A stretch of 61,497 nt of DNA, filler included. It is 3 parts of 3 records of this genome, joined end to end, with 100 filler letters (N's around TTAATTAATTAA, not from the genome) between each part and the next. Parts side by side here need not be neighbours in the genome. Positions count along the whole stretch, not along the records: positions 1 to 29,856 come from SRR22947725_392; 2 more parts are not named here. One strand, written 5' to 3'. Both the position numbers and the translations under genes were made by a program. The notes beneath the pieces are model-generated. The model saw only the letters and a list, made by a program, of their open reading frames with translations, ran no database searches and had not been told where the DNA came from. Shown here piece after piece: positions 6,518 to 26,487 of the stretch. Numbering within the stretch: position 1 is the first letter of the stretch; each line of letters begins with the position of its first letter.

Positions 6518-6533
6518 GATGGAATAGTTTATC

Positions 6534-8690
6534 TTAATTATTTTGTAATTTAAATTCTAATCTTCTACGATGTAAAATAGGTTCTGTATAACCTGATGGT
6601 TGATTTACCCCATCAAAAACAAGATCTTTCGCAGCCTTAAACGCAATAGAATTATCATTATCAGTCATAGGAATATAGTTTTTATCATTGGCATTTTGCT
6701 TATCTACCACTTTTGCCATCTTAATAAATGCCTTCAATACTTGATCCCTAGAAACTATTTCATGTTCAATCCAGTTTGCTAGAGCTTGTGATGAAATTCT
6801 GCAAGTTGCTCTATCTTCCATTAAGCCAATGTTATTAATATCTAAAACTTTAGAACAGCCTATTCCTTGATCAACCCAGCGAACAACATATCCTAAAATA
6901 CCTTGAGTATTATTTTCAACTTCGCGCATTATTTCATCTTCTGATAAATTTTGCCCCTTAAGTAGAGGTAAGGTAAGTAAGTCATCCAATGATCCTGCTA
7001 ATTCATTTTTAAGAATATTGTTTTGAATTTCTTTAACATCTACTTCATGATAATGAAGTGCATGTAAGGTAGCTGCAGTTGGACTTGGTACCCAAGCACA
7101 GTTTGCTCCAGATTTAGGGTGACCAATTTTTTGCTTCATCATTTCTTTCATTAAATCAGGCATTGCCCACATTCCTTTTCCTATTTGTGCCTTACCTTGC
7201 AAACCACAATCTAAACCAATTTTGACATTTCTCTTCTCATAGGATGAAATCCACGGTGCATTTTTCATATCAACTTTTTTTAAGAACGAACCAGCTTGCA
7301 TTGCAGTATGTATTTCATCACCCGTTCTATCTAAAAAGCCTGTGTTAATAAAAGCTACTCTTGATTTTGCAGCACGTATACATTCTTTTAAGTTAACACT
7401 TGTCCTTCTTTCCTCATCCATAATACCAATTTTTATTGTACTCTTTGGTAAATTTAATAAACTTTCAACTGCTGAAAAAAGTTGATCTGTAAATTCTACT
7501 TCTTCAGGTCCATGCATTTTTGGTTTTACTATATAAATAGATTTATGTTCTGAGTTTTTATTAGCTTCCTTTTTAAAATCATATGTTGCAATTAAGGTAG
7601 TAATAATTGCATCCATAATACCCTCACCAATTTCTTGATTATCTTTGTTTAAAATTGCTGGCGTTGTCATTAGATGACCAACATTTCTGATTAACATTAG
7701 TGAGCGTGTTTTTAAAAATTCTTCTGAACCTTTATTTGTAGTAAATTTTATATCTTTATTTAATGTTCTTGTGACAATTTGATTATTTTTCTTGAACTCT
7801 GCTTGAAGGTCACCTTTGACTAAACCAAGCCAATTTCTATATGCTAAAATTTTATCATCTGCATCTACAGTTGCAACACTATCTTCACAATCAAGGATAG
7901 TAGAGATTGCTGATTCAATTAAAATATCTGCAATATTAGCAGGATCATTTTTCCCAATAGGATCATTAGCATTAATTAAAATTCTGCAATGAAGATTATT
8001 TTTTAGTAAAATTAATTCTGTAAGTATAGACTTTTGATTTTTTCTCCATCCAATTATTTGATTATTATTTTCCAAATTAATATTTGAATTATTAGCACTG
8101 CTTAAAACAATTTTATTTTCAAGTAATTGAATTTTATTAATTTCACTCCACGACGCATTTAAAAGGGGAGCAAATTTATCTAAATGAGATTTTGCAAATG
8201 CGACAACTCTTGCACCTCTTTCAGATTCATAGTTATTTCCTTTAGGCATATCTCCTAAGGCATCAGTTCCATATAATGCATCATAAAAACTTCCCCACCT
8301 TGCATTTACAGCATTGAGGGCAAATCTTGCGTTTGTAATGGGCACCACAAGTTGTGGCCCACATATGGTTGATATTTCTTTATCAACATTAGAGGTTGTA
8401 ATTTTAAATTCTGGTCCTTCTTTAACAATATAATTAATTTCCTTTAAAAATTTTTTATATTCTTCTAGGTCAATATTTTTGCCTCTATGTGCAACATGCC
8501 ATTCATTTATTTTAGATTGTAAATTTTCACGACGATCTAAAAGATCATTATTTTTTTTATAATAAATATCGACAATATCAGAAAATCCATTCCAGAAATC
8601 TTCACTACTAATATGCAAGCCATTCAATACTTCCGTGTTAACGAAATTAAATAGGTTTAAATTAATTTTTATATTTTTCTGCTCAATCAT
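6534..8690 (-). CDS. glcB: Malate synthase G
   Basis: GPQLVVP, NARWGSFYDALYG, KPKMHGP, GIMDEERRTS and MEDRAT motifs. Confidence 0.97.
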   Translation of the reverse strand: MIEQKNIKINLNLFNFVNTEVLNGLHISSEDFWNGFSDIVDIYYKKNNDLLDRRENLQSKINEWHVAHRGKNIDLEEYKKFLKEINYIVKEGPEFKITTSNVDKEISTICGPQLVVPITNARFALNAVNARWGSFYDALYGTDALGDMPKGNNYESERGARVVAFAKSHLDKFAPLLNASWSEINKIQLLENKIVLSSANNSNINLENNNQIIGWRKNQKSILTELILLKNNLHCRILINANDPIGKNDPANIADILIESAISTILDCEDSVATVDADDKILAYRNWLGLVKGDLQAEFKKNNQIVTRTLNKDIKFTTNKGSEEFLKTRSLMLIRNVGHLMTTPAILNKDNQEIGEGIMDAIITTLIATYDFKKEANKNSEHKSIYIVKPKMHGPEEVEFTDQLFSAVESLLNLPKSTIKIGIMDEERRTSVNLKECIRAAKSRVAFINTGFLDRTGDEIHTAMQAGSFLKKVDMKNAPWISSYEKRNVKIGLDCGLQGKAQIGKGMWAMPDLMKEMMKQKIGHPKSGANCAWVPSPTAATLHALHYHEVDVKEIQNNILKNELAGSLDDLLTLPLLKGQNLSEDEIMREVENNTQGILGYVVRWVDQGIGCSKVLDINNIGLMEDRATCRISSQALANWIEHEIVSRDQVLKAFIKMAKVVDKQNANDKNYIPMTDNDNSIAFKAAKDLVFDGVNQPSGYTEPILHRRRLEFKLQNN

Positions 8691-11270: not shown

Positions 11271-12122
11271 ATGATCAAATTATTAGATACGCACCAACAT
11301 TTAGTCTACCGTGATGTTGCTGGCTATAGCTGGGCTAAAGATATACCACCACTTGCTGAAGATAATTTTACTGTTGGAGATTATTTAAAACTTACTGAGG
11401 GTCTAGGAATAGGCGGAACTCTATTTATGGAAACAGGAGTTGATGATCCTGATTATCAAAGTGAAGCTAAATACGTCAAAGGTTTAGCTGAAGATCCTGA
11501 TAATAATATTAAAGGTTTAATTGTTTCTATTAGACCAGAAAATGAAAATGAATTTAATAGTTGGTTTGAAAAAACACTTGAAATGAATGTTTCAGGGTAC
11601 AGGCGCATATTACATGTTATGCCTGATGAAACCTCTCAAGGGCAAACATTTATAAATAACGTAAAAAAAATTGGTCAAGCTGGCAAGCCATTTGATATTT
11701 GTTATCTTCCAACACAATTGTCAATAGCTTATGATTTTGCAAAGAATTGTGATGAAACAAATTTGGTTTTAAATCACTGTGGTGTTCCTTCTATTGCTAC
11801 TGGGGAAATAGATCAGTGGGGCAAGGATATTAAAAAATTATCAGAATTGCCTAACGTTTTTTGTAAGCTTTCTGGGTTAATGGCTTATTGTGCTCCGGGA
11901 ACTTCCTCGCAAGAGACAATTAAACCTTATGTTGATCATGTGTTGGAGTGTTTTGGTCCTAACAAAATGGTTTGGGGTAGTGATTGGCCTGTTGTAAATC
12001 TTGGCAAAGGAATTCAAGAATGGATTTCTGTTACAAGAAATATTTTTTCATCACTGTCGGAAGATGAAGCAGTTGCAATTGGAAATGGAAATGCTAAAAA
12101 AATTTATAAAGTAAATATATAA
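11271..12122 (+). CDS. Amidohydrolase-2 family, probable sugar lactonase (L-fucono/L-rhamnonolactonase-like)
   Basis: DTHQH, RRILH, LNHCG.P, CKLSG and WGSDWPV motifs. Confidence 0.8.
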   Translation: MIKLLDTHQHLVYRDVAGYSWAKDIPPLAEDNFTVGDYLKLTEGLGIGGTLFMETGVDDPDYQSEAKYVKGLAEDPDNNIKGLIVSIRPENENEFNSWFEKTLEMNVSGYRRILHVMPDETSQGQTFINNVKKIGQAGKPFDICYLPTQLSIAYDFAKNCDETNLVLNHCGVPSIATGEIDQWGKDIKKLSELPNVFCKLSGLMAYCAPGTSSQETIKPYVDHVLECFGPNKMVWGSDWPVVNLGKGIQEWISVTRNIFSSLSEDEAVAIGNGNAKKIYKVNI

Positions 12123-12170
12123 AACTACCACTGATTTGCCTTGATTTGAAGCTGAGTTAAATACTCCTTT

Positions 12171-12944
12171 TTAGAAAGAGGATGATACTCCACCATCAAC
12201 GAGTAATGTTTGACCCGTTACATATTTACTATCTTCAGAGCAGAAAAAGTAAACAGCACCTGCTATATCATCTGGATTACCATATCTTCCCATTGGTAGT
12301 TTTTCATATTTTAAATAAACATCTTTAAACCAGTCAGTATCCCATTCAAGATTGCCATCTTTCATTACAGATAAAGGTGTGTTTATAAATCCTGGAGCTA
12401 CAGAGTTTACTAAAATATTTTTTTCTGCTAATTCAACCGCAAGCACTCTTGTCATATTTATTAATCCGCCTTTTGCGGTGTTGTAAGATATATTACCTTT
12501 ATACCCTCTAATTCCTTGTATTGATGTTATCATGACAATTCTTGGAGTTAGAGACTTTTTCAGAAGAGACAGTGCATACTTTGAGCACAAAAAAGGGGCA
12601 TCCATGTTGACTTTCATTGTCTTTCTGTAAGCCTCATATGTTTGATCAGCTAATGTATACCCATCTTCAATGCCAGCATTATTAATTAAAAAATCTAATA
12701 CTCCCCATTTAGTTTTTGTAAATTCCATTAATTTTTTTATTTCTTCTTCTTTTGACAGATCTGTTTGAAAAAAACTTATTTTATTCTTATCAAGTTTATT
12801 TATTAAATTTTCAGCTAATTCTTTTCTTATATCTGCTATAATAACTTCAGCACCTTCGTCATATAATCGTTTTACTATACCCTCGCCAATTCCTCTAGAA
12901 CCACCCGTTACAATTGCCTTTTTATTTTCTAATCTCTTATCCAT
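12171..12944 (-). CDS. SDR family oxidoreductase
   Basis: TGGSRGIG, NNAG and YNTAK motifs; start re-assigned to ATG 12944. Confidence 0.9.
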   Translation of the reverse strand: MDKRLENKKAIVTGGSRGIGEGIVKRLYDEGAEVIIADIRKELAENLINKLDKNKISFFQTDLSKEEEIKKLMEFTKTKWGVLDFLINNAGIEDGYTLADQTYEAYRKTMKVNMDAPFLCSKYALSLLKKSLTPRIVMITSIQGIRGYKGNISYNTAKGGLINMTRVLAVELAEKNILVNSVAPGFINTPLSVMKDGNLEWDTDWFKDVYLKYEKLPMGRYGNPDDIAGAVYFFCSEDSKYVTGQTLLVDGGVSSSF

Positions 12945-12948
12945 AATA

Positions 12949-13749
12949 TTAGTACATAATCTTTTTTTCAGATCTTGAGATAATACTTGCAATTAATAAT
13001 ACAAGAAAAGATGTTAAAATTAAAATTAATGTTACAGATGCATTAACTTGCTTAGAAAAACCAACTCTCATTTTGGCCCAAAGCTTTATAGGCCAAGTAG
13101 TATCATTTCCTATTAAGAATAAAGTTATAAGTGTTTCATCAAGAGATATAGTGAAAGCAAGAAGACCAGCAATGATTAGAGATAGCTTTATATTAGGAAG
13201 AAGTACATACCAGAATGCCTGAAATTTGCTTGCTCCTAAATCATAAGCTGACTCCATTAGAGAAGGCTTAAGTGTTTCTAGTTTGTTAAGTATAATTTTG
13301 AAAACAATAGCAAGAACGAAAATGGTATGTCCAATAACAACAGTGTTTAATGATCTCGGGAGATTAATTTCTCTAAAGAAAATTAAAAGTGATAAGCCAG
13401 TTATTATCGGTGGTAATAAAAAAGGTAAAAAAATTATGAACTGAAGAAATTCTTTCATCTTACTTTTGCTAGTATGATAATAATTTGCAAAATAAAAACC
13501 TATAACCACTGAACAAATTACTGTTACAACACCGACATAAATAGAGTTCATCAATGACTCAAGTATTTGTTTTTCAAAAATAAGCTTTGTATAAGGCTCA
13601 TAAGAAAATGATGTCCAATCAACTTTTCCTTTTCGTGTTTTATAAAAAGAATAAAAAATAGTTAAAAAAATAGGCGTATATAATGCAGCCACTATTAAAC
13701 CTGTCAAGATCGCCATTACGTATTTGGTATAATTTTCTAGCTTAGTCAT
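12949..13749 (-). CDS. PotC-like ABC permease
   Basis: LYTPI, EAA-like loop (ESAYDLGAS), FTISLDE. Confidence 0.85.
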   Translation of the reverse strand: MTKLENYTKYVMAILTGLIVAALYTPIFLTIFYSFYKTRKGKVDWTSFSYEPYTKLIFEKQILESLMNSIYVGVVTVICSVVIGFYFANYYHTSKSKMKEFLQFIIFLPFLLPPIITGLSLLIFFREINLPRSLNTVVIGHTIFVLAIVFKIILNKLETLKPSLMESAYDLGASKFQAFWYVLLPNIKLSLIIAGLLAFTISLDETLITLFLIGNDTTWPIKLWAKMRVGFSKQVNASVTLILILTSFLVLLIASIISRSEKKIMY

Positions 13750-14597
13750 GCCTTCGATTTTTCTGTTAAGCGGTTAGTAAATAAAATAATAATAACTGAC
13801 ACAATTAATAAAATGCTTGCAAGAGCCGCACCAAACGGCCAGTTAAATGCCATACCAAAATTACTATAAATTATTTTGCCATATGTAAAGCCAGATGTCC
13901 CGCCTACTAATTGTGGTGTAACAAAATCACCTAGTGCTAAGATAAATACAAAAATACTCCCAACTATTAAGCCTGGCAAACCAATAGGAAAAATAACATA
14001 TCTAAAAGCTTGAAATGGTTTACATCCTAAATCAAAAGACGCTTCAATGATGTTTTTTGGAATTTTTTCTAAAGATGTAAAAGTTGGAATTATTATTAAA
14101 GGTAAAAGAATAACAACGAGTGTTATTATTACAGCATTTTGATTCCATAAAAAAAACTCGAGTGGTTTTTCAATCACTCCTAACATTTTTAAAACTTTAT
14201 TAATTAAACCTGAGAAACCTAGTATTGATCTCATCATATATATTTTTATGATGTAGCTCATAAAAAGAGGAATAATTAACATCAATAATATTGAATACTT
14301 ATACTTACCAGCATATCTAGCTAAAAAATATGCAACTGGGTATCCAAGTAAAATACAAATAAACATTACAATTAAAGCAAGTAAAATTGTTCTAATAAAT
14401 GTTTTTATATATATTTCTCCAGTAAGAAACTCTTGGTAATTAAATAAACTAAACTCATGATTTATATCAGTCCCATCAACCGTAAAGAAAGAATAGGATA
14501 AAAAAGATCCTAGTGGAATTAGAATAAGGGATATGACAAGAACAAAACTTATAAGTGTCCAAATTGATGTCCTAAAATAATTAACTACTTGTCTCAT
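13746..14597 (-). CDS. PotB-like ABC permease
   Basis: GYPVAY, EASFDLG, GDFVTPQLVGG, NWPFGAA; start re-assigned to ATG 14597. Confidence 0.85.
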   Translation of the reverse strand: MRQVVNYFRTSIWTLISFVLVISLILIPLGSFLSYSFFTVDGTDINHEFSLFNYQEFLTGEIYIKTFIRTILLALIVMFICILLGYPVAYFLARYAGKYKYSILLMLIIPLFMSYIIKIYMMRSILGFSGLINKVLKMLGVIEKPLEFFLWNQNAVIITLVVILLPLIIIPTFTSLEKIPKNIIEASFDLGCKPFQAFRYVIFPIGLPGLIVGSIFVFILALGDFVTPQLVGGTSGFTYGKIIYSNFGMAFNWPFGAALASILLIVSVIIILFTNRLTEKSKA

Positions 14598-15663
14598 CTT
14601 TAAATATTGTTCCAACACCGGTATTAAGTTCTGCATTTATTACATCACCTTGTTGGAAGGATTGTGAGATATTTGAACTGATGTTTTGGATTTTTAAATA
14701 TTTTTCACTGTGCCTGCTCTTTACATTTAAATTTGAGGTAGACCCTCTAAATTCTACGTCTTTTACAATAACTTCAATACTATTTGAGTTACTCTGATCT
14801 AATATTTTGATTTCTTCAGGCCTAATGCCAAATGTTAACGAGTCGCCAATTGATTTATCTATACTCTGATTAATTAATAATTGACCAAATTCTGACTCAA
14901 CAACAATACTATCTTCTTTTTTATCAACTATTTTGCATGCTATAAGATTACACTCTCCAAAAAATTTTGCCATGTATATTGTTTTCGGACTGTAGTATAA
15001 ATCTTTTGGTGATCCAATTTGTTCAAATTTATGATTATTAAGTACGGCAATTCTATCAGATAAAAATATAGCTTCTTCTTGATCATGAGTGATAAAAATA
15101 AATGATATTTTAATTTTTTTTTGTATTTCTTTTAAAAATAGTTGCATTTGTTTTCTAAGTTCAGCATCAAGTGCTCCCAAAGGTTCATCAAGTAAAATAA
15201 TTTTAGGTTCGCAAATTATTGCTCTTGCTAAAGCGACTCTTTGTTGTTGACCACCAGATAATTCTTGTGGCATACGATCAGAAAAATTTTCAAGCCCTAC
15301 AATTTGTAAAACTTCTTGAACTTTCTCCTTTATTTTTAAGGTGTTAACATTTTTAATTTTTAATCCAAACCCAACATTGTTAAATACATTCATATTTGGA
15401 AATAAAGCATAATCTTGAAAGACAGTATTGAAAGGTCTTTCAAAAATTGGTTGCTCATTAATAATATTATTTTCATAAAAGATTTGACCTGAAGTTGGTT
15501 TTACAAAGCCACCAATCATTCTAATAATTGTTGATTTTCCAGAACCACTTGAGCCAAGTATTGTAAAAAATTCGTTATTATTAATTTTAAAATTAATATT
15601 ATCTAAAACTTTAGTTTCACCATAACTTTTGGAAATATTTTTAAGTTCTAAAATTTCACTCAT
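14581..15663 (-). CDS. PotA-like ABC ATPase
   Basis: GSSGSGKS Walker A, VFQDYALFP, LSGGQQQR, LLDEP, THDQEEA. Confidence 0.9.
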   Translation of the reverse strand: MSEILELKNISKSYGETKVLDNINFKINNNEFFTILGSSGSGKSTIIRMIGGFVKPTSGQIFYENNIINEQPIFERPFNTVFQDYALFPNMNVFNNVGFGLKIKNVNTLKIKEKVQEVLQIVGLENFSDRMPQELSGGQQQRVALARAIICEPKIILLDEPLGALDAELRKQMQLFLKEIQKKIKISFIFITHDQEEAIFLSDRIAVLNNHKFEQIGSPKDLYYSPKTIYMAKFFGECNLIACKIVDKKEDSIVVESEFGQLLINQSIDKSIGDSLTFGIRPEEIKILDQSNSNSIEVIVKDVEFRGSTSNLNVKSRHSEKYLKIQNISSNISQSFQQGDVINAELNTGVGTIFKDETSS

Positions 15664-15869
15664 TATTTATTCAATTGGTAGATGTATAAATTTATTTATA
15701 TAAAATATTTGCAATTTTTTATTTAAAAAGTCAATTTGTTCTTCATAAATACAAGGAATTTAATGTATTGAAAATTTTATATTTAAAAGTTTCATTCAAA
15801 TATCAAATTCAATATTTGACACCAATTATAAATACTGATTTATTGAATAAAATATTAATTGGAGGATTT

Positions 15870-16877
15870 ATGAAAAAATTAATTTATTCTTTTTTATCAT
15901 TTATTTTTATTTTCTCATTTACATTTTCTTCACATGCCGCAAGAGAATTAAGTCTTGGGTGTTTTGAAGGTTATGCTGAGCAAGAATGGATTGATGAATT
16001 TGAAGCAAAATATGACGTTAAGGTAAAAGTTAAATATGTAGGAAGTGTTGATGAATTATTTGCGTTAACTCAAGCTAGTAAAGGTGAAGATTTTGATCTT
16101 ATTTCTATAGATACAAGTTTATTTCCAAGATACCATGGTGCAGGCTTGCTTAAAGCATATGACAAAAGTCAACTTAGTAATTTTAATAATCTAATGCCAG
16201 CTTTTCAAAGTGTAAAAGAAGTTGAAATTGATGGCGGATATTATGGTGTTCCAATTTCTTGGGGTTCATTAGGCTTGATTTATGATGTTGATGAGTTTGG
16301 AGAGGGCGGAGTTGACTCTTGGTCAGTTATGCATGATCCTGCAAATGCAGGCAAGATGATTGTGCTAGATGATACTAATAACAACATTGTTAATACAGCT
16401 ATTTATCTAGGAATGGATAATCCATATAATTTATCTGAAGCAGAAATGGAGCAAGTTAAGCAAACACTTATTGATCAAAAAAAATTAGTGCTAACTTATT
16501 TTGCTGGTTTTGATGAAGGTAACCAGATTTGGGATAGTGGAGGAGTTTCTTTGATGTTCTCAATGGGAGAATTTCAAGAAGTTGCCCTTAAGGATATGGG
16601 TCACAATGTAAAATATATTATTCCTAAAGAAGGTGGAATTGGTTGGCTTGATACTTGGGCTATGACCTCAGGTGCGGATGAAGAACTGGCACACGCATGG
16701 GCAAATTTTTTCATTGAAAAATCTACTCAAGAAGTAATGAATAGTAGATATGGTTACGGAACTGTAACTCATGAATCACCTGGTCTTGATTATGCTGATC
16801 TTTTGAATTGGCTTCAGCCAGCTGAGGATTTTGAATGGAGAAATAGAGTTTGGAATGAAGTTAAAGCTTCAAACTAA
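15870..16877 (+). CDS. PotD-like (polyamine/opine-class) ABC substrate-binding protein
   Basis: Signal peptide after GGAGG SD (15861-15865); GVPISWGSLG and IPKEGGIGWLD motifs. Confidence 0.8.
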   Translation: MKKLIYSFLSFIFIFSFTFSSHAARELSLGCFEGYAEQEWIDEFEAKYDVKVKVKYVGSVDELFALTQASKGEDFDLISIDTSLFPRYHGAGLLKAYDKSQLSNFNNLMPAFQSVKEVEIDGGYYGVPISWGSLGLIYDVDEFGEGGVDSWSVMHDPANAGKMIVLDDTNNNIVNTAIYLGMDNPYNLSEAEMEQVKQTLIDQKKLVLTYFAGFDEGNQIWDSGGVSLMFSMGEFQEVALKDMGHNVKYIIPKEGGIGWLDTWAMTSGADEELAHAWANFFIEKSTQEVMNSRYGYGTVTHESPGLDYADLLNWLQPAEDFEWRNRVWNEVKASN

Positions 16878-16887
16878 ATTATTTTAT

Positions 16888-16908
16888 TTGGGGGCGATTA
16901 GCCCCCAA
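16888..16908 (+). terminator. GC-rich stem-loop after the SBP gene (terminator or mRNA stabiliser)
   Basis: TTGGGGGC-GATTA-GCCCCCAA. Confidence 0.6.
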
Positions 16909-16953
16909 TTTCTGCCTAACTTTTTAAATTAATTATCAGTAAGGTTTTTAAAA

Positions 16954-18123
16954 ATGAAAATAACTAAAATTGAAACATTCTCTTTATTAATTCCTGATTT
17001 TGACGCAGATGCTTGTAGCTCTGCCCAAGATAATTTGGTTGTAAAAATTTATACTGATAGCGGACTTTTTGGTATTGGAGAAACAGATACAAATCCGTGG
17101 GGTGTTAAAGCTACCATTGAGTCTCCAGGAACACATGCTATGGCAAGAAGTTTTAGCGATATACTGGTCGGTAAAGACCCAAGAAACGTGGAAGGTCTCT
17201 GGCATGAGATGAATGAAAAAACTTTGATGACATCAAGAAGAGGCTTGGGCATATGTGCAATTGGAGCAATTGATATGGCTCTTTGGGACTTGTGTGGTAA
17301 AATTTATAATCAGCCAGTATGGAAAATTCTTGGTGGTTCTAAAAAAAATTTTGTTACCCCATATGCTTCCCTTTTACCTGAAGGACATACTTTAGAAGAA
17401 TATTCAAAAAGTCTTGTAGAAAAAACGAAAGCTGCAAAGAAATTAGGATTTAAAGCAGCAAAGTTAGAAATATGTATAAAAGGTCCGTACTCTCATAATA
17501 ATTTACAAATTGATGATGATAGAGAATTTGCAAAAATGGTCAGGCTTTGTAGGGAAGCAGTTGGAGATGAGATGACACTTATGGCAGATGTTGCCTATGC
17601 ATGGCAAGATTGGAAAAGTGCAAAGAGGGCATTAGACATGTGTGAAAAAGAAAATTTATTTTTTATTGAAACACCTTTGCCAATTGAAGATTTAGAAGGT
17701 TTAAATAAATTATCTCAATCTGTGCAAACCAGAACCGCAACAGGTGAAATGTTACAAACTCGATACGAGTGTTTTGAAACAATTATTAGAGGTAATGTAG
17801 ATGTTATACAACCTGATGTTGGTAGAGTAGGTGGATTAACAGAAGCTAAAAGAGTTTGTGATTTTGCAGAAGATAAAGGTGTGTTAGTAGTTCCACATTG
17901 TTGGAAATCAGCTATTGGAATTGCAGCATCAGCACATTTATCTGCAACAACTACCGCATGTCCATACATAGAATTTTTACCTTCAGCACTTGCTGAGTCT
18001 CAATTACGTAAAGATCTAGTACTTAATGAATTACCAGTTGTTGATGGAAAGATTTATTTACCTGAGCAACCTGGTTTGGGTATAGAGCTTAATGAAGATA
18101 AACTTAATCAATATTTAATTTAA
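16954..18123 (+). CDS. Mandelate racemase/muconate lactonizing (enolase superfamily) enzyme 1, probable acid-sugar dehydratase
   Basis: IDMALWDL.GK; metal ligands D..ETP..GE; QPDVGR, PHCW and PGLG motifs. Confidence 0.9.
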   Translation: MKITKIETFSLLIPDFDADACSSAQDNLVVKIYTDSGLFGIGETDTNPWGVKATIESPGTHAMARSFSDILVGKDPRNVEGLWHEMNEKTLMTSRRGLGICAIGAIDMALWDLCGKIYNQPVWKILGGSKKNFVTPYASLLPEGHTLEEYSKSLVEKTKAAKKLGFKAAKLEICIKGPYSHNNLQIDDDREFAKMVRLCREAVGDEMTLMADVAYAWQDWKSAKRALDMCEKENLFFIETPLPIEDLEGLNKLSQSVQTRTATGEMLQTRYECFETIIRGNVDVIQPDVGRVGGLTEAKRVCDFAEDKGVLVVPHCWKSAIGIAASAHLSATTTACPYIEFLPSALAESQLRKDLVLNELPVVDGKIYLPEQPGLGIELNEDKLNQYLI

Positions 18124-18145
18124 TGATATTAAATTGATTTAAATT

Positions 18146-18577
18146 ATGAATATAAAATTTATTGACACCCCTAAGCCAATTGGTAATTTTACTAATGTAA
18201 GATTTTCTGGAAAATATGCATATATCTCTGGTCAAGGAGCATTTGATGCTAGTGGAAATCTTATAACGGGTAAAGTTGGCAAAGATTTAAATCTTGATGA
18301 AGGGTATGAAGCAGCTAGAAGGGTGGGCATTACAATACTATCAGTAATTAAAAATGATATTGGTTTTGATAAAGTACTAAAGGTTGTAAAAATTCTTGGA
18401 TTAGTAAATTGCACAAAAGATTTTTTATCACAACCTAAAGTTATAAATGGTTGCTCTGATCTCTTAGTTGAATATTTTGGTAAAGAGAAGGGTGTCCATG
18501 CAAGAAGTGCAATGGGAGTTTATGTTTTACCAAACAACATTCCTGTAGAGATAGAAGCTATTATTGAGTTAATTTAA
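18146..18577 (+). CDS. RidA/YjgF family imine deaminase
   Basis: YISGQG, VINGCSDLL, HARSAMGV and PVEIE motifs (catalytic Arg retained). Confidence 0.88.
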   Translation: MNIKFIDTPKPIGNFTNVRFSGKYAYISGQGAFDASGNLITGKVGKDLNLDEGYEAARRVGITILSVIKNDIGFDKVLKVVKILGLVNCTKDFLSQPKVINGCSDLLVEYFGKEKGVHARSAMGVYVLPNNIPVEIEAIIELI

Positions 18578-19777
18578 CCAGGATAACCAATCTTTATTTG
18601 ATTTAATAGAATATTCTTTTTGAGAAATATTATTTTTTAACTTTCTAGAATTTAGTTTTAGTATAGTTTTTTTTAACTCATTCATTACGACTTTTTCTTG
18701 TCCTTTTTTTAAATTACAAGTATCTAATTCAAAATGATTCAGGTGGATTAAATCATCTCTAACAAAAATTGCAGGATTATTTTTTTCTAAGTAATAGCTT
18801 AGTGATTGAATTGTAAATTTTGATATTTTAGAATCAACATGTACTCGAAGTCTATTTATTTTATTACCTGTTGGATCTGCTATAATCTCATAGGTAATAC
18901 CCTTAAATTTTTCTTTTGCTAGAAATGTCAACCAGACTTGTAAAATTTTATTTTGATTATTGATTTCTTTTTTCCAATTTCTTTTATACCAGTTTTCAAC
19001 ACCAATAATTGCTGCATAAATAGCTTCTTTACCCACCTTCATTCCTCTTCCAATGCCTAAATTTTGTAGATAAATATTTTTTACATATTTTTTCTTACCT
19101 GCCAAAATACCAGCAGTAAGTGAACCCATAAATTTATGAGCGCTAAAAATTACTATATCAGCACCAATCTTGAAGAATTCTTCCATATATTCTTCTGAAG
19201 CTGCATCTACTATTGTGGGTATCTTATATTGCTTACATAATTTTAAAAATTTTGAAATCTCTATTGCATTATAATCAGAGCAATGATGAGAAACAACATA
19301 CATTGCACAAGCAATATTTTTTTTATTTTTTGATAAAGATTTGTCTAATTGTTCTATTGAACATGAGTCTTTAAGACCACAAGTTAATATTTTAGCACCT
19401 GATAGCTCTATTCCTTGTCTAACTTCGGCACCATAATTTGTCAGATGTCCTCTTTGTATTAATACTTTGCTTTTCATTCCGTTAGTATTGGGAAGTTTAA
19501 AAACCTTTTTTAAATCATTCCCTGTCATCATGCTAGCAACACTCTCAGTCAAACCGCCAGCAGCTGAAGCAGTTATTACTGCTGATTCTGTATTAAAACA
19601 TTTTGATATTCTTTTTGAGGCAATAGCTTGTAACTCATCAATGTTAACAAAATTTGTAAAAATTTCATTTGCAGCTTTGATTGATTTTGGATTTGTTATT
19701 GAAGCGCCAATTTTTGTCATAAAACCACTGACATTTATTATTGGAGTCAAATTATTTTTTTTATAAAAATTTTTCAC
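18569..19777 (-). CDS. SelA-like PLP enzyme, DgaE (D-glucosaminate-6-phosphate ammonia-lyase)-like
   Basis: IINVSGFMTKIGAS, VDAASE, FSAHK (PLP Lys) and GRGMKVGKE motifs; GTG start. Confidence 0.8.
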   Translation of the reverse strand: MKNFYKKNNLTPIINVSGFMTKIGASITNPKSIKAANEIFTNFVNIDELQAIASKRISKCFNTESAVITASAAGGLTESVASMMTGNDLKKVFKLPNTNGMKSKVLIQRGHLTNYGAEVRQGIELSGAKILTCGLKDSCSIEQLDKSLSKNKKNIACAMYVVSHHCSDYNAIEISKFLKLCKQYKIPTIVDAASEEYMEEFFKIGADIVIFSAHKFMGSLTAGILAGKKKYVKNIYLQNLGIGRGMKVGKEAIYAAIIGVENWYKRNWKKEINNQNKILQVWLTFLAKEKFKGITYEIIADPTGNKINRLRVHVDSKISKFTIQSLSYYLEKNNPAIFVRDDLIHLNHFELDTCNLKKGQEKVVMNELKKTILKLNSRKLKNNISQKEYSIKSNKDWLSWLN

Positions 19778-19877
19778 AATTATTATTTATTATTTCAATT
19801 TAACTTATAGTATAATATTTTTTTAATGAATAAAATTATGGAATATTAAAAAAAAAAATTAACTCAAGGAATCTTTT

Positions 19878-21047
19878 ATGAAAATTATTGATGTTGAAAC
19901 TTATGTACTTCTAGCTGACAATTATGATCCAAGTTTAACATCATCAGCACAAGATACATGTTTGGTTATTATTAAGACTGATGAAGGTATAGAAGGGTAT
20001 GGAGAATGTGATACAAGTCCATGGGTAGCAAAAGCGTTTATTGAGTCTCCAGGGACACATACAATGGATCAATGTGTTAAAGAAATTCTTATTGGATCTG
20101 ATCCCCTTGAAATTGATTTACTGTGGGAAAAAATTTATGTTGGTACAGCAATGACAGGACGGAGAGGTGCTGGTGTGAATGCCATGAGTGCCGTTGATAT
20201 GGCATTATGGGATATTAAAGGTAAGGCTTTAAATAAACCAGTTTTTGAATTGCTAGGAGGAAAAGAACAAGATTTTGTTATTCCTTACGCCTCCTTACAA
20301 CCTGTTGGTCACTCTTTTGAAGAATATAGGGACTCTTTAGTGGCTTGGGCAGAAAAGGCAAAGAGCCTTGGATTTAAAGCTGTAAAATCTGAAGTTACAT
20401 TAAACGGACCTTACGCTCATAGTGGGCTCAATGAAAATGATGATAAAACAACTGAAGTAGTTGCTGCAGTAAGAAAAGCTTTAGGGCCAGATATTGAATT
20501 AATGATAGATGTACAATATCGATGGAAAGATGCAGAAGAAGCTTTGCGAACAGTAAAAGATTGGGCTGAATTTAATATTTATTTTTTAGAAACACCTGTG
20601 TGGACGGATGATATAAAAAGTTATGCAAGAATGCACGAAGAAGCCCCTATGAAAATAGCAGCAGGGGAATGGCTTAGTACCCGTTATGAGTTTGAAGATT
20701 TAATTTTAAATGGAAAAATTGATGTTGCCCAACCTGATGTAGGTCGTTGTGGAGGTTTAACAGAGGCAAAGAAAATCGCAAAATTTTCTCAGGAGAACAA
20801 TAGAATAATAGTCCCTCATTGCTGGAAAACTTCTGTTTCTATTTCAGCAACTGCTAACTTTGCTTTCAATACATCTAACTGTGCTTTTATTGAATATCTA
20901 CCCCCTCAATTATGTGTAGAAATTTTAAGAAAGGAACTTGCAACGGAAGGTTTTGATTTTGCTGATGGAAAAATATTACCTCCAACAAAACCTGGATTAG
21001 GAATTGAACTTAATAGAGATGCAATAAAAAAATATCAAGTTGCTTAA
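19878..21047 (+). CDS. MR/MLE enolase-superfamily enzyme 2 (paralog of 16954)
   Basis: Shares SSAQD, IESPGTH, PYASL, GPY.H, QPDVGR and PHCWK with enzyme 1. Confidence 0.9.
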   Translation: MKIIDVETYVLLADNYDPSLTSSAQDTCLVIIKTDEGIEGYGECDTSPWVAKAFIESPGTHTMDQCVKEILIGSDPLEIDLLWEKIYVGTAMTGRRGAGVNAMSAVDMALWDIKGKALNKPVFELLGGKEQDFVIPYASLQPVGHSFEEYRDSLVAWAEKAKSLGFKAVKSEVTLNGPYAHSGLNENDDKTTEVVAAVRKALGPDIELMIDVQYRWKDAEEALRTVKDWAEFNIYFLETPVWTDDIKSYARMHEEAPMKIAAGEWLSTRYEFEDLILNGKIDVAQPDVGRCGGLTEAKKIAKFSQENNRIIVPHCWKTSVSISATANFAFNTSNCAFIEYLPPQLCVEILRKELATEGFDFADGKILPPTKPGLGIELNRDAIKKYQVA

Positions 21048-21914
21048 TTAAAGCAGCCTAAACTCAACTGAAGATTCAAACTTTTTATTTTTTTTTAAAT
21101 TTCTTAAACCTGTGTATTCTTTTGAATATTTTTTTATTTGAAATGCATCACCTATGTTGGTTACGGGCTCAATACAAAAAAAACTTTCTTTTGGAGGAGT
21201 GTAAACATGTAAATTATTTAAATTTTTTTTATTAATAATTTCTAATGATATATCTTTATTTAATACAAGTTTTGATTTGCCATTCCAATTAAGAAAAGTT
21301 TTATCAATTTTATTTTTACCAAGATTTAATTGTTTAGCTAATGTAAGTTTTTTTTGTGTAAAATTATTTTTATTGTTTTCAATATAAGAAAAATTATTTG
21401 AGAAAATTTTTGATTCAGCACTGATGTTAAACCATGGATGAAAACCAATACCACAGTCAAAAGGTAAGTGATCTAAATTTGTAAGTCTTATAGAAATATT
21501 TAATGAAGTTTTATTTAAACTAAATTTTTGCCAAGCCTGGTATTTATGAGGGAAACTACTTTTCCCCTGATGTACATATATTAATTCAGCAGAAGTTTTT
21601 GTCCATTTTTTTACTTTCCATTTTTTTACCCAGCCTTCTCCATGGATAGTATCTGGCTCTAAAGGATGTGTTCTGGAAAGTTTGATATATTTATTTTTAT
21701 AGAAAAAAGTATTTTTGTGAATTACTCCAAAATATGGAATAGTTGCAAAATACCCTGAAAAATAACAGTTATTTTTTGTAATTTTTTTTGTTTCTGGAAA
21801 TGGTCTAAATATATCTTTGTTTTTTTTTCTATGAAAAAATTTTGTTATTGAGGCACCCATTTCAGGTGATATTTCGAGAAATAAATGTTTATTTTGCAAT
21901 GAAATTAAAGGCAT
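21048..21914 (-). CDS. Aldose 1-epimerase (galactose mutarotase-like)
   Basis: IHGEGW, GIGFHPWF and FFCIEP motifs. Confidence 0.85.
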   Translation of the reverse strand: MPLISLQNKHLFLEISPEMGASITKFFHRKKNKDIFRPFPETKKITKNNCYFSGYFATIPYFGVIHKNTFFYKNKYIKLSRTHPLEPDTIHGEGWVKKWKVKKWTKTSAELIYVHQGKSSFPHKYQAWQKFSLNKTSLNISIRLTNLDHLPFDCGIGFHPWFNISAESKIFSNNFSYIENNKNNFTQKKLTLAKQLNLGKNKIDKTFLNWNGKSKLVLNKDISLEIINKKNLNNLHVYTPPKESFFCIEPVTNIGDAFQIKKYSKEYTGLRNLKKNKKFESSVEFRLL

Positions 21915-21916
21915 TA

Positions 21917-22786
21917 TTATTGATTAAGATTGCTATAAGGTATTTTTTGCCCTGTAAAGTTTGTTTTAATTATAAAGGATGAACCAGAGTATCTGTATGT
22001 TTGCATCTGGGTTTTAGTAGTTTCAATTTTTGCAGAAGTTACAAAAATATGGTTAAGTTTTTTTCCAACAAAAGTTACACTTGTTATATTTAAAGCTGGT
22101 ATTTTAATTACAACATCGATTTTTTTTGTTTTTAAATTAATTCTTGAAATCTGTCCTCCAGCCCAATGAGCGACCCATAGGCCATTCTCTTTATCCAAAG
22201 CAATACCATCGGGAAAACCTTGATTTTTTTTAAATTTGTAAATCAATTTTTTCTTTAATGTTTTTAAATTGTATTGATAAATAGTAGAATTTAAAGAGTT
22301 AGAAAAATAAAGACTGTTTTGTTTTTCATCAATAGCCGGACCATTGGAGACTTTAAAACCTTGATCAAGTTTATTAAATTTGTTGTTCTGTAAATATCCA
22401 AAATATCCTAAGTTTTTAGTTTCTTTGATATGACTCAAACCAATCCATAGTTTTTTTTTTGTAATTGTACCATCATTGTAAGAAATTTTATGTAATTCAT
22501 CTGTCTCTCTTATATCTTGATAATATTTAATTGTTTTTTTATTACGATCATAAATATGCAAACCATCTAAGTTACTGATAATAAATTGACCATTATGCAT
22601 AGGATAAATATTACCTAAAGGTTTAGGTAAGTTTAATTTTTCTTTTGATAAAGTTTTGTTTGTTATAGAATAAAAAAAAACTGAAGGATTAAGAAGGTCT
22701 AAAAAAACAATTTCATTTGTTTTATATAAATAAAAACCACTCTCACCCAATAATGTTTTGCTATCCAAAATATCAAAATCAAACAT
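21917..22786 (-). CDS. SMP-30/gluconolactonase family lactonase
   Basis: LGES, NDG, SNGP and PDGIALD..GLWVAHW motifs. Confidence 0.85.
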   Translation of the reverse strand: MFDFDILDSKTLLGESGFYLYKTNEIVFLDLLNPSVFFYSITNKTLSKEKLNLPKPLGNIYPMHNGQFIISNLDGLHIYDRNKKTIKYYQDIRETDELHKISYNDGTITKKKLWIGLSHIKETKNLGYFGYLQNNKFNKLDQGFKVSNGPAIDEKQNSLYFSNSLNSTIYQYNLKTLKKKLIYKFKKNQGFPDGIALDKENGLWVAHWAGGQISRINLKTKKIDVVIKIPALNITSVTFVGKKLNHIFVTSAKIETTKTQMQTYRYSGSSFIIKTNFTGQKIPYSNLNQ

Positions 22787-22800
22787 TATAAAATTATTTG

Positions 22801-23955
22801 TTAAAAAACTTTTTTCTTATTGATATAAATATCTACATCAACTTTATATTGCTCTAGAGCTTTTTGATTTATTTTCATTCCATGACCAATCTCTTCAGGT
22901 ATGTTTATATTACCATCATTATCTAATGTAATGTGATTATCTGTTAAATCCCAAGCAAGTGATTTTAACTGCTGGGGAAATTCAGCAAAAAAACTTTTAG
23001 AAGAATTCGCATATGGTTGTAGCGATGCAGAAAGTTGCAAATGTGAAGTGAAAGTGTGATTAACATATTGAACTTCAGATTGTTCTGCAAAGTCACATAT
23101 TTCTTTTCCAGCAAGAATACCTCCTGCAATTCCAGCATCTATTTGTATAAATTTTACCTTTCCAAACCTGATCATATTTTTTGCTGATTCAATAGAATGG
23201 CATGATTCACCACCAGCTAGAGGTAGATTAGTTTTTTTATACAATTCACTATATTCAAAAAAAGCATCTGAATAAAATGGCTCTTCTAACCAAGTAATTT
23301 TAGCATTATTAAATATATTATTTCTTTTTACCGCTTCTTCAACATTAGTTCCCCAAATAGCTCCAACATCAACCATCAAGTGTAATTCTTGCCCAATAGC
23401 TTCTCTTGCAGCAATAAGATGCTCTTCATCTAATTGAAAATTTTTACCAAAATTTTGCCATCCAAATTTAATTGCTCTAAAATTTTTTTCTTTTATTAAT
23501 TTTCCTATATTAAAAGTTTCTTGAGGAGTTTTACCAAACAACACAGAGGCATAAGCAATTTTAGGTGTTGTTTTTTCATATCCCAATAATGAGTAAATTG
23601 GGGATTGTTCTTTTTTTCCAAGTAAATCTAATAGAGCTACTTCTATTCCAGAAAAAGTATGAGGCGTTTGAGCAATCATGAGTGATTTATGCTTTACCTC
23701 ATTAATAATTTTTTTTATGTCTTCTAAATTATTGATACTTTTATCTAGGATAGAAGTTATAATTGGATTAGCAGCAGAATGTGATTTTGGACAAATAAAA
23801 TTTGCAATTGAAGTTAGGGGAGAGGCTTCACATTCACCCCATCCAACAAAACCACCAGCTTCTACCTTAACAATTAGTGCGTCTTGACTTCCATCTGCCT
23901 CATCTAATATTTCTGGCATAGATAGGTAGTTTAGTTCTATATTGTCTATTTTCAT
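22801..23955 (-). CDS. MR/MLE enolase-superfamily enzyme 3 (distinct subfamily)
   Basis: DGSQD, GWGECEASP, KFGW, LMVDVG, WLEEP, AGGE and NHTF motifs. Confidence 0.88.
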   Translation of the reverse strand: MKIDNIELNYLSMPEILDEADGSQDALIVKVEAGGFVGWGECEASPLTSIANFICPKSHSAANPIITSILDKSINNLEDIKKIINEVKHKSLMIAQTPHTFSGIEVALLDLLGKKEQSPIYSLLGYEKTTPKIAYASVLFGKTPQETFNIGKLIKEKNFRAIKFGWQNFGKNFQLDEEHLIAAREAIGQELHLMVDVGAIWGTNVEEAVKRNNIFNNAKITWLEEPFYSDAFFEYSELYKKTNLPLAGGESCHSIESAKNMIRFGKVKFIQIDAGIAGGILAGKEICDFAEQSEVQYVNHTFTSHLQLSASLQPYANSSKSFFAEFPQQLKSLAWDLTDNHITLDNDGNINIPEEIGHGMKINQKALEQYKVDVDIYINKKKVF

Positions 23956-24024
23956 CAATTTCTCAATATTAATTTATTTAAGTAAATTTATTTCTATTTA
24001 ACTAAAATTTAATTTAACAAATCT

Positions 24025-24354
24025 TTAATCTAAATGAAATATTTCATCCATCATGACCCATGACTCATTATTTTCATTGTTTGGAAAGGGGTTAAAGCAA
24101 CTTATCATTAATTTAGTCCATTTATCAACAATAGGTATCTTTTGCATTTCAGCCATATCACTATCAAAATCATTCCCATCATATTCTAGGTAGCCAAACA
24201 TAAAATCTTCTTTTAGGTAAATACTATAGTTTTTAACATTAACTTTCTTAAGCTCTTCTAATACTTCTGGCCAAACAGCAGCATGGTTTTCAATATAGAA
24301 ATCCCTTTTTTCATTTTTAAGTCTCACTGCCATGGCATATCTCTGAGTACTCAT
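24025..24354 (-). CDS. rhaM: L-rhamnose mutarotase-family protein
   Basis: Y...H..VWPEV, NYSIYL, FGYLEY, W..M.EIFH. Confidence 0.85.
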   Translation of the reverse strand: MSTQRYAMAVRLKNEKRDFYIENHAAVWPEVLEELKKVNVKNYSIYLKEDFMFGYLEYDGNDFDSDMAEMQKIPIVDKWTKLMISCFNPFPNNENNESWVMMDEIFHLD

Positions 24355-24478
24355 TTTATTCCTTTCAGCTGTAAATTATAATACAATCGTAATAATAATT
24401 ATTATTATAAACAATATCTATTATTCAATTCAAATATAAAGTTTGATTTTGTATGTAAAAATATTAATGTAAAATTTT

Positions 24479-25567
24479 ATGACTCTATTTAATTCCAACG
24501 ATATTGCAAACCTTAACTCAACAATTCCTTTACCCAGTAAACCAAAAAAAATAGTTATTATAGGCGCTGGAGGAATAGTAAGTGACGCCCATTTACCTGC
24601 TTATAAAAAAGCTGGTTTTGAAGTATTAGGTATTTTTGATCCTCAAAAAGATAAAGCTACTAAGTGCGCTGAGATTTTTAATATTGAAAAAGTTTATTCT
24701 TCTGAAGATGAAGCGTTTTTAGAAAAAGATGTTGTCTTTGATATTGCAGTTCCACCTCAGGTATTGGCTGAGGTAGTAAAAAAAATACCTCAAGGCTCTG
24801 TATGCCAACTTCAAAAGCCGATGGGCAACAGCATGGAAGATGCTAGGTTAATAAAAAAAATAATTAAAGAAAATAAGATAATTGCTTGTGTCAATCTACA
24901 GCTAAAATTTAGTCCAATGATGATTGCTTTACGAGAAGCTATTAACAAGAATATGATTGGTGATATCAATGAGTTAGAGATTAGTTTAAGTGTCAAAACT
25001 CCCTGGCATTTATGGCCTTTCTTGGAAACATTGGATAACGTAGAGGTACCATTGCACTCTATTCATTATTTAGATTGGATACGTTCTGTTCTTGGAAATC
25101 CAAGAAGCGTTCATTGCAAATCTGTTAAACATCCAAGTGTACCAAAATTATCAGATGCACGTTCCAGCATTATACTTGAATATGAAAAAGATATAAGGTG
25201 TTGTCTTTCTATTAATCATACTCATAATACAGATATGCACGGAATGAAACATTCTCATGCATATGCAAGAGTTGAGGGGTCAAAAGGTGCGGCTTATATT
25301 AAATTTGGATTATTATTAAATTATCCTAAGGGTGAGCCAGAAGAAATTGAAATAAGTACGGAAGGTACAGAATGGACTAAGGTAAATAAGGTAGGAACAT
25401 GGTTTCCAGATGCTTTTATTGGAACGATGTCTAGTTTACAAAGATATGCATCAGGTGAAGAAAAAAATTTATTGCACTCAGTTGATAATGCCTATGAAAC
25501 TATGGCTCTTGTTTACGCTTGTTTAAAGTCAAATGAAACCTTAGGTACGTCAGTAGAATATAATTAG
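24479..25567 (+). CDS. Gfo/Idh/MocA family oxidoreductase (sugar dehydrogenase)
   Basis: IGAGGIV..AHLPAY, QKP, HSIHYLD and WFPDAFIG motifs. Confidence 0.87.
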   Translation: MTLFNSNDIANLNSTIPLPSKPKKIVIIGAGGIVSDAHLPAYKKAGFEVLGIFDPQKDKATKCAEIFNIEKVYSSEDEAFLEKDVVFDIAVPPQVLAEVVKKIPQGSVCQLQKPMGNSMEDARLIKKIIKENKIIACVNLQLKFSPMMIALREAINKNMIGDINELEISLSVKTPWHLWPFLETLDNVEVPLHSIHYLDWIRSVLGNPRSVHCKSVKHPSVPKLSDARSSIILEYEKDIRCCLSINHTHNTDMHGMKHSHAYARVEGSKGAAYIKFGLLLNYPKGEPEEIEISTEGTEWTKVNKVGTWFPDAFIGTMSSLQRYASGEEKNLLHSVDNAYETMALVYACLKSNETLGTSVEYN

Positions 25568-26383: not shown

Positions 26384-26487
26384 TTAAACTCGTTATCAAA
26401 ATTTATAACTTAATTCTTATTTGTCTTTTCTTTTTTGTATCTTCTGTCTAATATATAAAAAATATATTAAAATTATGGAGGAAAATT

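Follow-up and report, generated by a model that had tools for sequence, protein, structure and literature searches.

Does a run of nine genes that brings together a polyamine-type importer and a predicted ammonia-lyase encode one metabolic pathway, or several functions that merely lie side by side? The question is raised by positions 12171-21047 of a 61,497-nucleotide stretch of DNA (the window, filler included), which has a G+C content of about 30%. There, a PotABC-like ATP-binding cassette (ABC) importer and its PotD-like solute-binding protein (SBP) are found with a short-chain dehydrogenase/reductase (SDR), two enolase-superfamily enzymes, a Rid-family protein and a pyridoxal 5'-phosphate (PLP) enzyme related to DgaE, which we call the lyase. 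An earlier note on this DNA had proposed that the nine genes form a single, undescribed system for the uptake and deamination of a non-phosphorylated amino-sugar compound. The reading that we prefer, and to which we give about an even chance, is that the region holds two separately conserved modules within a sugar-oxidation island carried by a low-GC marine alphaproteobacterium: module B, composed of the lyase and the Rid protein, would deaminate an unphosphorylated 2-amino-aldonate, and module A, composed of the importer, the SDR and the two enolases, would be an independent uptake unit.

The nine genes are intact open reading frames (ORFs) at the coordinates and on the strands given in the earlier note, and Pfam and NCBIfam profile searches agreed with the families that it had named. 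In module B, the lyase gene (18569-19777, minus strand) encodes a SelA-like fold-type I PLP enzyme of the DgaE family, a putative 2-amino-2-deoxy-aldonate ammonia-lyase; the Rid gene (18146-18577, plus strand) encodes a Rid1-type protein, a putative enamine/imine deaminase. The two genes converge and overlap at their 3' ends by 9 bp. Homologues of the lyase number in the thousands. Our search found at least 579 encoding genome stretches across Alpha-, Beta- and Gammaproteobacteria and beyond, and the neighbourhoods of the best 80, whose lyases are 36-86% identical to that of the window, were compared. A Rid homologue lies within 2.5 kb of the lyase in 68 of these 80 genome loci and within 200 bp in 34; none was seen within 8 kb in 11 loci, three of which have less than 1 kb of upstream flank. 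These Rid homologues are 35-56% identical to the window Rid protein, rising to 75-85% in two near relatives. An enolase-superfamily match was absent from 74 of the 80 loci. Because the Rid gene stays near the lyase in so many loci and the enolases are missing from most of them, the pair is best described, on the evidence of gene neighbourhoods, as an old and widespread unit independent of the enolases. A co-occurrence analysis had been proposed in the earlier note; its outcome supports the association of the lyase with Rid and speaks against that of the lyase with the enolases.

The other frequent neighbours of the lyase in the 80 loci are an IclR regulator (62 loci), an amidohydrolase of the 2ogj/EF_0837 type (a deacetylase; 54 loci) and a Dpp-type binding protein (53 loci). 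Pfam searches on four loci found this canonical layout in full in Brucella tritici, Rahnella and Thalassospira and in part (Rid, IclR, lyase) in Variovorax, where the canonical-type cluster also carries an M81 peptidase. The proteins Atu3266 and EF0837 are reportedly the subject of a paper from the Raushel group.

Rid proteins are not expected to bind a partner enzyme. The one encoded here, called RidA in the earlier note, does belong to the Rid family but is not an archetypal RidA: it scored 31 bits against TIGR00004 (RidA), below the cut-off of 106.25, and passed PF14588 with 48.5 bits against a cut-off of 35. The nearest solved structures are 3d01 from Agrobacterium and the Rid1 proteins PA0814 and ACIAD3089 (PDB 9bk9 and 9bkb), with E values from 3e-20 to 1e-14. 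The arginine of its HARSA motif aligns with an arginine in all three, and this column would correspond to Arg-105 of RidA, to judge from the statement that Rid1 to Rid3 carry the arginine (PMC5619798, in excerpt), RidA itself lying outside the alignment. Rid1 proteins deaminate imines in vitro, and the excerpted text of the same 2017 study records neither a phenotype for any member of Rid1 to Rid7 nor a physiological partner for Rid1 (PMC5619798).

What would the lyase act on? It scored 276 bits against the family model TIGR01437 (cut-off 385.3) and 221.3 bits against the equivalog NF047797 (cut-off 600), and it matched PDB 7lc0 over residues 3-369 (E 3.5e-48). The PLP lysine, Lys-215, and His-164 and His-165 are invariant in 20 of 20 aligned sequences, the two histidines aligning with His-162 and His-163 of the Salmonella enzyme DGL. 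For DGL it has been described that His-163 protonates C3, that the enzyme itself protonates the enamine, that Arg-226 is close to the carboxylate and that the 6-phosphate was placed by manual docking onto Arg-301, Arg-332 and Arg-346 (PMC9529869, in excerpt). The equivalents of Arg-301 and Arg-332 (Arg-309 and Arg-340 in the window lyase) are kept in all the aligned sequences. The position of Arg-346 is a cysteine (Cys-354 in the window lyase) in all 11 sequences of the window's clade, clade A, of which genomic context is known for five, and an arginine in DGL, in 8t7j and in all nine sequences of clade B, which come from Enterobacterales; the position of Arg-297 is an asparagine in 11 of 11 clade-A sequences. 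The window's clade also bears a C-terminal extension of about 25-30 residues, and the tree separates clades A and B with 100/100 support, the marine lyases forming a clade on a long branch of 1.34 changes per column. No DgaE above its cut-off was found in 151 sampled Enterobacterales genomes, and clade B, which reached 355-387 bits on NF047797, was used as the comparison group, as a stand-in for DgaE and not DgaE itself.

The neighbourhoods bear on the same question. Among the six clade-B loci scanned, four have a 2-keto-3-deoxygluconate-6-phosphate (KDGP) aldolase and all six have the EF_0837-type deacetylase. Because the same deacetylase stands in clade B beside the KDGP aldolase and a lactonase, its pairing with the lyase can be tied to sugar acids. 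The clade-B cluster itself (L097, L105, L108, L111, L113 and L104, all Enterobacterales) comprises a DUF4310 membrane protein, the deacetylase, the lyase, the KDGP aldolase and a 7-bladed lactonase, and looks like a route for phosphorylated N-acetyl-amino-sugar acids distinct from the Salmonella dga operon. Searches with tblastn for a KDGP aldolase gave no match in 110 sequences, that is, the 80 genome loci, 29 metagenome loci with close relatives of the lyase, and the window. A PfkB kinase was present in only three of the 80 and 29 loci. At one of these, L080 from Inquilinus, PfkB and an Eda-type aldolase (139-1610) open a Dpp-Rid-lyase cluster; it is the sole locus of the 109 with both, and their place at its head fits free 2-keto-3-deoxygluconate (KDG) as the product. 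As for the window, Pfam searches on 65 of its 67 listed ORFs with 100 or more residues found no phosphotransferase system (PTS), sugar kinase or aldolase, and tblastn with PfkB, Eda and KDGP-aldolase queries gave no match; the two ORFs outside the Pfam scan (29089-29433, minus strand; 60073-60759, plus strand) both overlap scanned ORFs on the opposite strand. The absence of a PTS, a kinase and DgaF, which the earlier note had pointed out, is thereby borne out.

Taken together, the missing KDGP aldolase, the replacement of Arg-346 by cysteine and the split between the clades favour, short of proof, an unphosphorylated substrate, and the lyase probably acts on a non-phosphorylated 2-amino-aldonate, working with the Rid protein. 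The proposal of a non-phosphorylated amino-sugar substrate in the earlier note is thus supported for the lyase, but its link to the PotD-type importer found no support. The old Pseudomonas glucosaminate ammonia-lyase is classified as EC 4.3.1.9. No assay of a DgaE-like enzyme on free glucosaminate was found in the literature searched, a search in which subscription journals were largely outside the scope.

Module A comprises the operon potA-potB-potC-SDR on the minus strand and, on the plus strand, the SBP and the two enolases. PotA (14581-15663) is an ABC ATPase with ABC_tran and TOBE_2 domains, at 360 bits on the PotA model (cut-off 482); PotB (13746-14636) and PotC (12949-13749) are BPD_transp_1 permeases, at 177 bits (cut-off 348) and 132 bits (cut-off 326) on their respective models. 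The SDR, last gene of the operon, occupies 12171-12944 within an ORF of 12171-12992 (adh_short_C2, 200 bits), and its true start is likely the ATG at 12944, 4 nt past the PotC stop. The SBP (15870-16877) has a signal peptide and an ATG at 15870 preceded by GGAGG. It matched SBP_bac_8 with 89.9 bits and stayed below every equivalog (PotD, 60.5 against 582; PotF, 56.1 against 636; YdcS, 79.5 against 725), its nearest solved relatives being of the PotD/PotF class, with 3ttl the best (E 4e-18). It shares a G-W-x-D stretch with PotD and PotF, other ligand residues not being reliably mappable from local alignments, and in the ESM Atlas it matched only generic binding-protein clusters. Enolase 1 (16954-18123) is of the mandelate racemase (MR) subgroup and of the 3sjn type, with MR_MLE_N and MR_MLE_C domains; enolase 2 (19878-21047), which adjoins the lyase here and is placed in module A by orthology, has MR_MLE domains too and is its paralogue (45.5% identity). 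The best named models for them are galactonate and gluconate dehydratases, all below cut-off (at best 180 against 750 for enolase 1 and 193.6 against 311 for enolase 2), and the nearest solved relatives, 3sjn, 3mqt and 3mkc, bear no function-specific name in the PDB table.

Orthologues of this SBP are rare, being found in seven of 401 sampled alphaproteobacterial genomes at E <= 1e-40, and orthologues of enolase 2 at E <= 1e-90 were found only in one of the 401, the relative G002. The module is kept together in the two genomes that, outside the marine group, have the closest SBP orthologues. The one in G236 has an SBP 61% identical to that of the window, PotA, PotB, PotC and two enolases of the Eno1/2 type (63-65%). 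That in G312 has an SBP 50% identical, PotB and PotC (PotA was not detected at this module), two Eno1/2-type enolases (58% and 63%), two SDRs (47%) and an SMP30 lactonase. An enolase 1 orthologue (58%) stands beside the orthologous SBP in G312, and enolase 2 orthologues (63-65%) beside it in both genomes. Neither the lyase nor Rid was found within 20 kb of either module; the nearest lyase homologue in G236 is 110 kb away, and the whole G312 genome has none at E <= 1e-20. Four more distant SBP orthologues (38-42%) keep PotABC without the enolases. Because the paired enolases are kept with the SBP and PotBC in G236 and G312 with no lyase or Rid nearby, they are, as far as gene order can tell, a real conserved feature that belongs to the importer and not to the lyase. 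The two modules are conserved independently of each other, and the single nine-gene system of the earlier note is not supported by this comparison, given that module A recurs without lyase or Rid and that most lyase loci are without an enolase.

The nearest named records, as judged by the lyase, are an uncultured alphaproteobacterial single-cell genome (L001, 86% identity) and a MarineAlpha5 bin (L002, 71%), whose contig keeps synteny with the window over a stretch that begins at an aldehyde dehydrogenase and malate synthase G and runs on through the island. In addition, 29 metagenome loci carry lyases 69-94% identical to that of the window, and 13 DNA runs from five seawater or biofilm studies hold at least 90% of the sampled words of 14581-21047. 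The arrangement is not due to chance, since near-identical and shuffled versions of it are present in the two genome loci and in the 29 metagenome loci. No protein of the island is better conserved than the SBP, at 95-99% identity in relatives with lyases of 71-94% identity; in the marine relatives, PotC is 93-100%, the SDR 86-89% and enolase 2 92-100% identical. Gene order near the lyase is shuffled among these close relatives, and Rid and enolase 1 are adjacent in only part of them. In the 29 metagenome loci, the downstream neighbour of the lyase is the aldose epimerase-SMP30 pair in 12, Rid in eight, another SDR followed by Rid in five and could not be told in four (25 informative). RhaM, a GFO-type dehydrogenase, IclR and a CUT1 importer travel with the lyase and Rid in L124, L125, L130 and L137. 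At 4665-9945 of L002, the lyase has as its neighbour a second CUT1 system with two flanking Fe-ADH_2/DHQ-synthase-like genes, an arrangement absent from the window, and L116, L123 and L131 have the same permease matches at that position (L002 being the only one of them scanned with Pfam). In G002, a CUT1 ABC system and two Fe-ADH_2-like genes separate module A from the lyase. Inside the island, L001 (7264-8304) and L002 (18725-19762) also have a Meth_synt_2 gene for a cobalamin-independent methionine-synthase-like protein of about 345 residues, reduced to the catalytic domain, of which the window has none.

For the substrates, the order of the reactions and the role of Rid, we infer the following scheme. 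Module B would perform a cytoplasmic deaminating step on a 2-amino-2-deoxy-aldonate that is unphosphorylated and of the D-glucosaminate type: the lyase would remove the C3 hydroxyl and release an enamine/imine, which the Rid protein would hydrolyse to a KDG-type 2-keto-3-deoxy-aldonate and ammonia. The amino-aldonate would most likely be made in the cell from an imported amino sugar by the neighbouring mutarotase, GFO-type dehydrogenase and SMP30 lactonase, and the KDG-type product would be finished by a KDG kinase and a 2-keto-3-deoxy-6-phosphogluconate (KDPG) aldolase encoded elsewhere in the genome. In genome-wide searches the relatives G001 and G002 stood in for the window's own genome; such a pair may be seen in G002, which has adjacent PfkB and Eda genes elsewhere in its genome and a FAH-family hydrolase on the island contig. 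Module A, with its PotD-type importer, SDR and two 3sjn-type enolases, would take up and convert a different acid sugar or a lactone independently, with no need of the lyase.

Several observations weigh against this scheme. On the side of the lyase, the substrate of clade A is assigned from genomic context together with one residue pattern, all sequences keep two of the three arginines that form the phosphate site of DGL, and that site was itself defined by manual docking and not from the structure of a complex (PMC9529869, in excerpt). The deacetylase and Dpp importer typical of the canonical cluster are missing from the window and its marine relatives; because of this, and because the marine branch is long, the substrate of the marine lyase may differ from that of the Rhizobiales-type cluster. 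The KDG kinase and aldolase were found only in the genome of a relative. On the side of the importer, the independence of module A rests on two genomes, a PotD-class binding protein would suit an amine, and both modules stand in one island in every marine locus long enough to tell, so that they may be functionally linked in the marine lineage.

The first of the alternatives keeps the lyase-Rid pair and changes its substrate to another D-beta-hydroxy-alpha-amino acid (D-serine, D-threonine, or a residue from an N-acyl-D-amino acid or a peptide), the place in a sugar island being incidental or a matter of nitrogen scavenging. The dipeptide/oligopeptide-type ABC importer and the amidohydrolase of the canonical cluster agree with this, as do the M81 peptidase of Variovorax and two published findings: OngC, an analogous deaminase, also takes D-serine and D-threonine (PMC9537276, in excerpt), and Rid proteins act on many amino-acid-derived imines (PMC5619798, in excerpt). 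Yet the EF_0837-type deacetylase also accompanies clade B, beside a KDGP aldolase and a lactonase, the constant neighbours of the lyase in the marine relatives are sugar-oxidation genes, and the L080 cluster is linked to PfkB-Eda. Moreover, a genome paper on natronoarchaea, in a prediction only, draws chitinase clusters with a DgaE homologue, a glucose dehydrogenase, an enolase-family dehydratase, IclR and RutC/Rid, and predicts a route from glucosamine to glucosaminate in them (PMC12343721, in excerpt). We therefore consider a D-amino acid substrate unlikely.

A single integrated pathway, in which the PotD-type importer would bring in an amino sugar, an amino-aldonate or a sugar-amine conjugate, the enolases would work on it (a C2 epimerisation that gives the D-form being one possibility) and the lyase and Rid would deaminate it, seems to us distinctly unlikely. 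Both gene sets do share one island, not only in the window but also in G002 and the long marine loci L115, L117, L121, L131 and L142, the Rid gene directly follows the SBP and enolase 1 in the window, the SBP has its nearest solved relatives in the PotD/PotF class, and enzymes of the enolase superfamily abstract the proton alpha to a carboxylate. Against it stand the shuffled gene order of the close relatives with Rid and enolase 1 adjacent in only part of them, the genes inserted between module A and the lyase in G002, the module of G312 in a genome without any lyase, and the 74 lyase loci without enolases. Nor was an operator found in common among the divergent promoter regions 15664-15869, 19778-19877 and 24355-24478, which have only short AT-rich words in common; with up to 3 mismatches allowed, the sole clean palindrome (15796-15819) has 6 matches in the window where 4.55 were expected, a number equalled in 31 of 100 shuffles. 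Inverted repeats were unremarkable, and taken by itself the operator search says nothing either way about co-regulation.

A narrower version, which we regard as a long shot and less probable again, is that the marine lineage joined the modules into a route for a nitrogen-bearing sugar acid imported by the PotD-class protein, one 3sjn-type enolase acting on the 2-amino-2-deoxy-aldonate. In such a joined route, the enolase could be a C2 epimerase feeding the D-specific lyase, or a deaminating dehydratase whose enamine also needs Rid; if so, both the type of reaction, for the enolase superfamily, and the class of ligand, for PotD-type binding proteins, would be new. Finally, a true DgaE acting on D-glucosaminate-6-phosphate, with a kinase or PTS encoded elsewhere, is very improbable: clear family membership, the two retained arginines and the several PfkB kinases in relatives' genomes are outweighed by scores under both NCBIfam cut-offs, the invariant cysteine in place of Arg-346, the lack of a KDGP aldolase, PTS or kinase both in the window and at 106 of the 109 related loci, and a clade set apart from the aldolase-linked one with 100/100 support.

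Sequences assembled from RNA libraries were also compared with the region. A GC-rich hairpin on the plus strand (16888-16908; 8 bp stem, 5-nt loop, -16.5 kcal/mol, z -3.5) directly follows the SBP stop. It is possibly a partial terminator or an mRNA stabiliser and, by its position, may raise the level of SBP mRNA over that of the enolase and Rid genes that follow. It went uncalled in the consensus promoter and terminator scan, whose counts were at or below shuffle level (79 promoters against 80.8, two terminators against 5.7). Contigs from RNA libraries (four of four runs, from four studies), which are neither certain proof of transcription nor a ranking of the genes, are identical to parts of the SBP gene and differ at 0-3 positions from parts of the two enolase genes. 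One contig joins the last part of enolase 1 to the first part of the Rid gene, and another of 916 bases (16 differences) runs from the SBP gene into enolase 1; cover over the lyase gene is faint or missing, which speaks neither for nor against its expression. The RNA runs are labelled freshwater, and the DNA runs that hold the region come from seawater and biofilm.

The borders 12171-21047 cut through a larger sugar-oxidation island at 11271-29605. On its left, outside those borders, a lactonase-like Amidohydro_2 protein is encoded at 11271-12122 on the plus strand (PF04909, 115.7 bits; 97.8 bits on the L-fucono-1,5-lactonase model NF052480, cut-off 400), with a syntenic counterpart of 75% identity in G002. 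On the right, Pfam identified an aldose 1-epimerase and an SMP30-type lactonase (21048-22786, minus strand; SMP30 at 21917-22786), a third enolase of the 2hzg type (PDB 2hzg, E 1e-104) with a RhaM mutarotase (22801-24354, minus strand), and then, on the plus strand at 24479-29605, a GFO/IDH/MocA dehydrogenase (24479-25567), an IclR regulator and a CUT1 sugar ABC system made of a binding protein and two permeases. The ORF at 29491-29904 (window part 29605-29856) is a remnant of the CUT1 ABC ATPase, encoding only residues 1-84 of a protein of about 364 residues in L001 and L002, and is directly followed by an aldo-keto reductase gene on the opposite strand; the CUT1 importer of the window may be defective, or served by an ATPase encoded elsewhere. 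Upstream of the island, the aldehyde dehydrogenase and malate synthase G genes (5084-8690; syntenic in G002, 79% and 67% identical) could handle the glycolaldehyde or glyoxylate that a non-phosphorylative sugar-acid route would yield. Further upstream, between a glycosyltransferase and an NAD epimerase, a 633-residue ORF without a Pfam family (1882-3783) lies in the lowest-GC part of the window (2001-4000, 0.197) and may encode a membrane protein for surface polysaccharide.

The turnover of chitin and peptidoglycan releases amino sugars and their oxidised forms in abundance. Should the lyase and Rid act together as suggested here, streamlined marine Alphaproteobacteria would draw both carbon and nitrogen from them by an oxidative, phosphorylation-free route, the large DgaE-like clade, with its at least 579 encoding stretches, would be a fold-type I counterpart of OngC, and the Rid1 subfamily would gain a physiological partner. 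On the side of module A, the rare but highly conserved PotD-type importer and its two enolases tie the solved but functionally unnamed structures 3sjn, 3mqt and 3mkc to a transporter whose ligand can be screened.

How does the locus compare with known systems? The importer of module A has the ABC architecture and the binding-protein class of PotABCD and PotFGHI, but all its components are far under the equivalog cut-offs and its conserved neighbours are enolases, an SDR and a lactonase instead of polyamine genes. Enolases 1 and 2 share the MR_MLE N and C domains with the acid-sugar dehydratases and cycloisomerases of the superfamily (galactonate dehydratase, GalrD-III 4ggb and the 3,6-anhydrogalactonate cycloisomerases 5olc and 5xd7), whereas no named model reached its cut-off for them and the tie to a PotD-class importer is unusual. 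The window Rid protein resembles PA0814, ACIAD3089 and 3d01, its nearest solved relatives, with which it has the arginine of the HAR motif in common; it differs in having a specific PLP lyase as its likely partner, when none was known for Rid1 in 2017 (PMC5619798, in excerpt). As to DgaE and DGL, the window lyase is in the same fold-type I SelA-like family, and keeps the PLP lysine, the His-His loop and, of the three arginines at the phosphate site, two; the same chemistry would be expected, the beta-elimination of the C3 hydroxyl from a D-2-amino acid. It departs from them in its scores, under both the family and the equivalog cut-offs, in the cysteine and asparagine at the positions of Arg-346 and Arg-297, and in its C-terminal extension. 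The DgaE operon also has a PTS and the KDGP aldolase DgaF, neither of which is near the window lyase, and the latter is paired with a Rid protein, whereas DGL protonates the enamine through its own His-163 (PMC9529869, in excerpt).

The closest comparison in terms of chemistry is with the ong pathway of Pseudoalteromonas prydzensis, in which OngB deacetylates N-acetylglucosaminate (GlcNAc1A), OngC deaminates free glucosaminate (GlcN1A) to KDG and ammonia, and KdgK phosphorylates the KDG; OngD, of the RidA family, is genetically essential for growth, with its role left open in the excerpted text (PMC9537276). In the light of this pathway, the word undescribed used in the earlier note was too strong for the chemistry, since a route that deaminates free glucosaminate to KDG, and in which a Rid-family protein is essential, is already in print. 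The canonical clade-A cluster follows the same logic of importer, deacetylase, Rid, regulator and deaminase, but its proteins are at most distant relatives of those of the ong pathway: OngC has PLP fold type III and is an analogue, not a homologue, of the fold-type I window lyase, OngB is of the D-aminoacylase type where clade A uses an EF_0837/2ogj-type amidohydrolase, and the importer of the ong pathway is a sodium:solute symporter (SSS). The window itself differs further, having neither an Amidohydro_1 deacetylase nor PfkB by Pfam and tblastn. The deamination chemistry is known from the ong pathway, and the clade-A enzymes with their Rid1 partner are putative catalysts of it.

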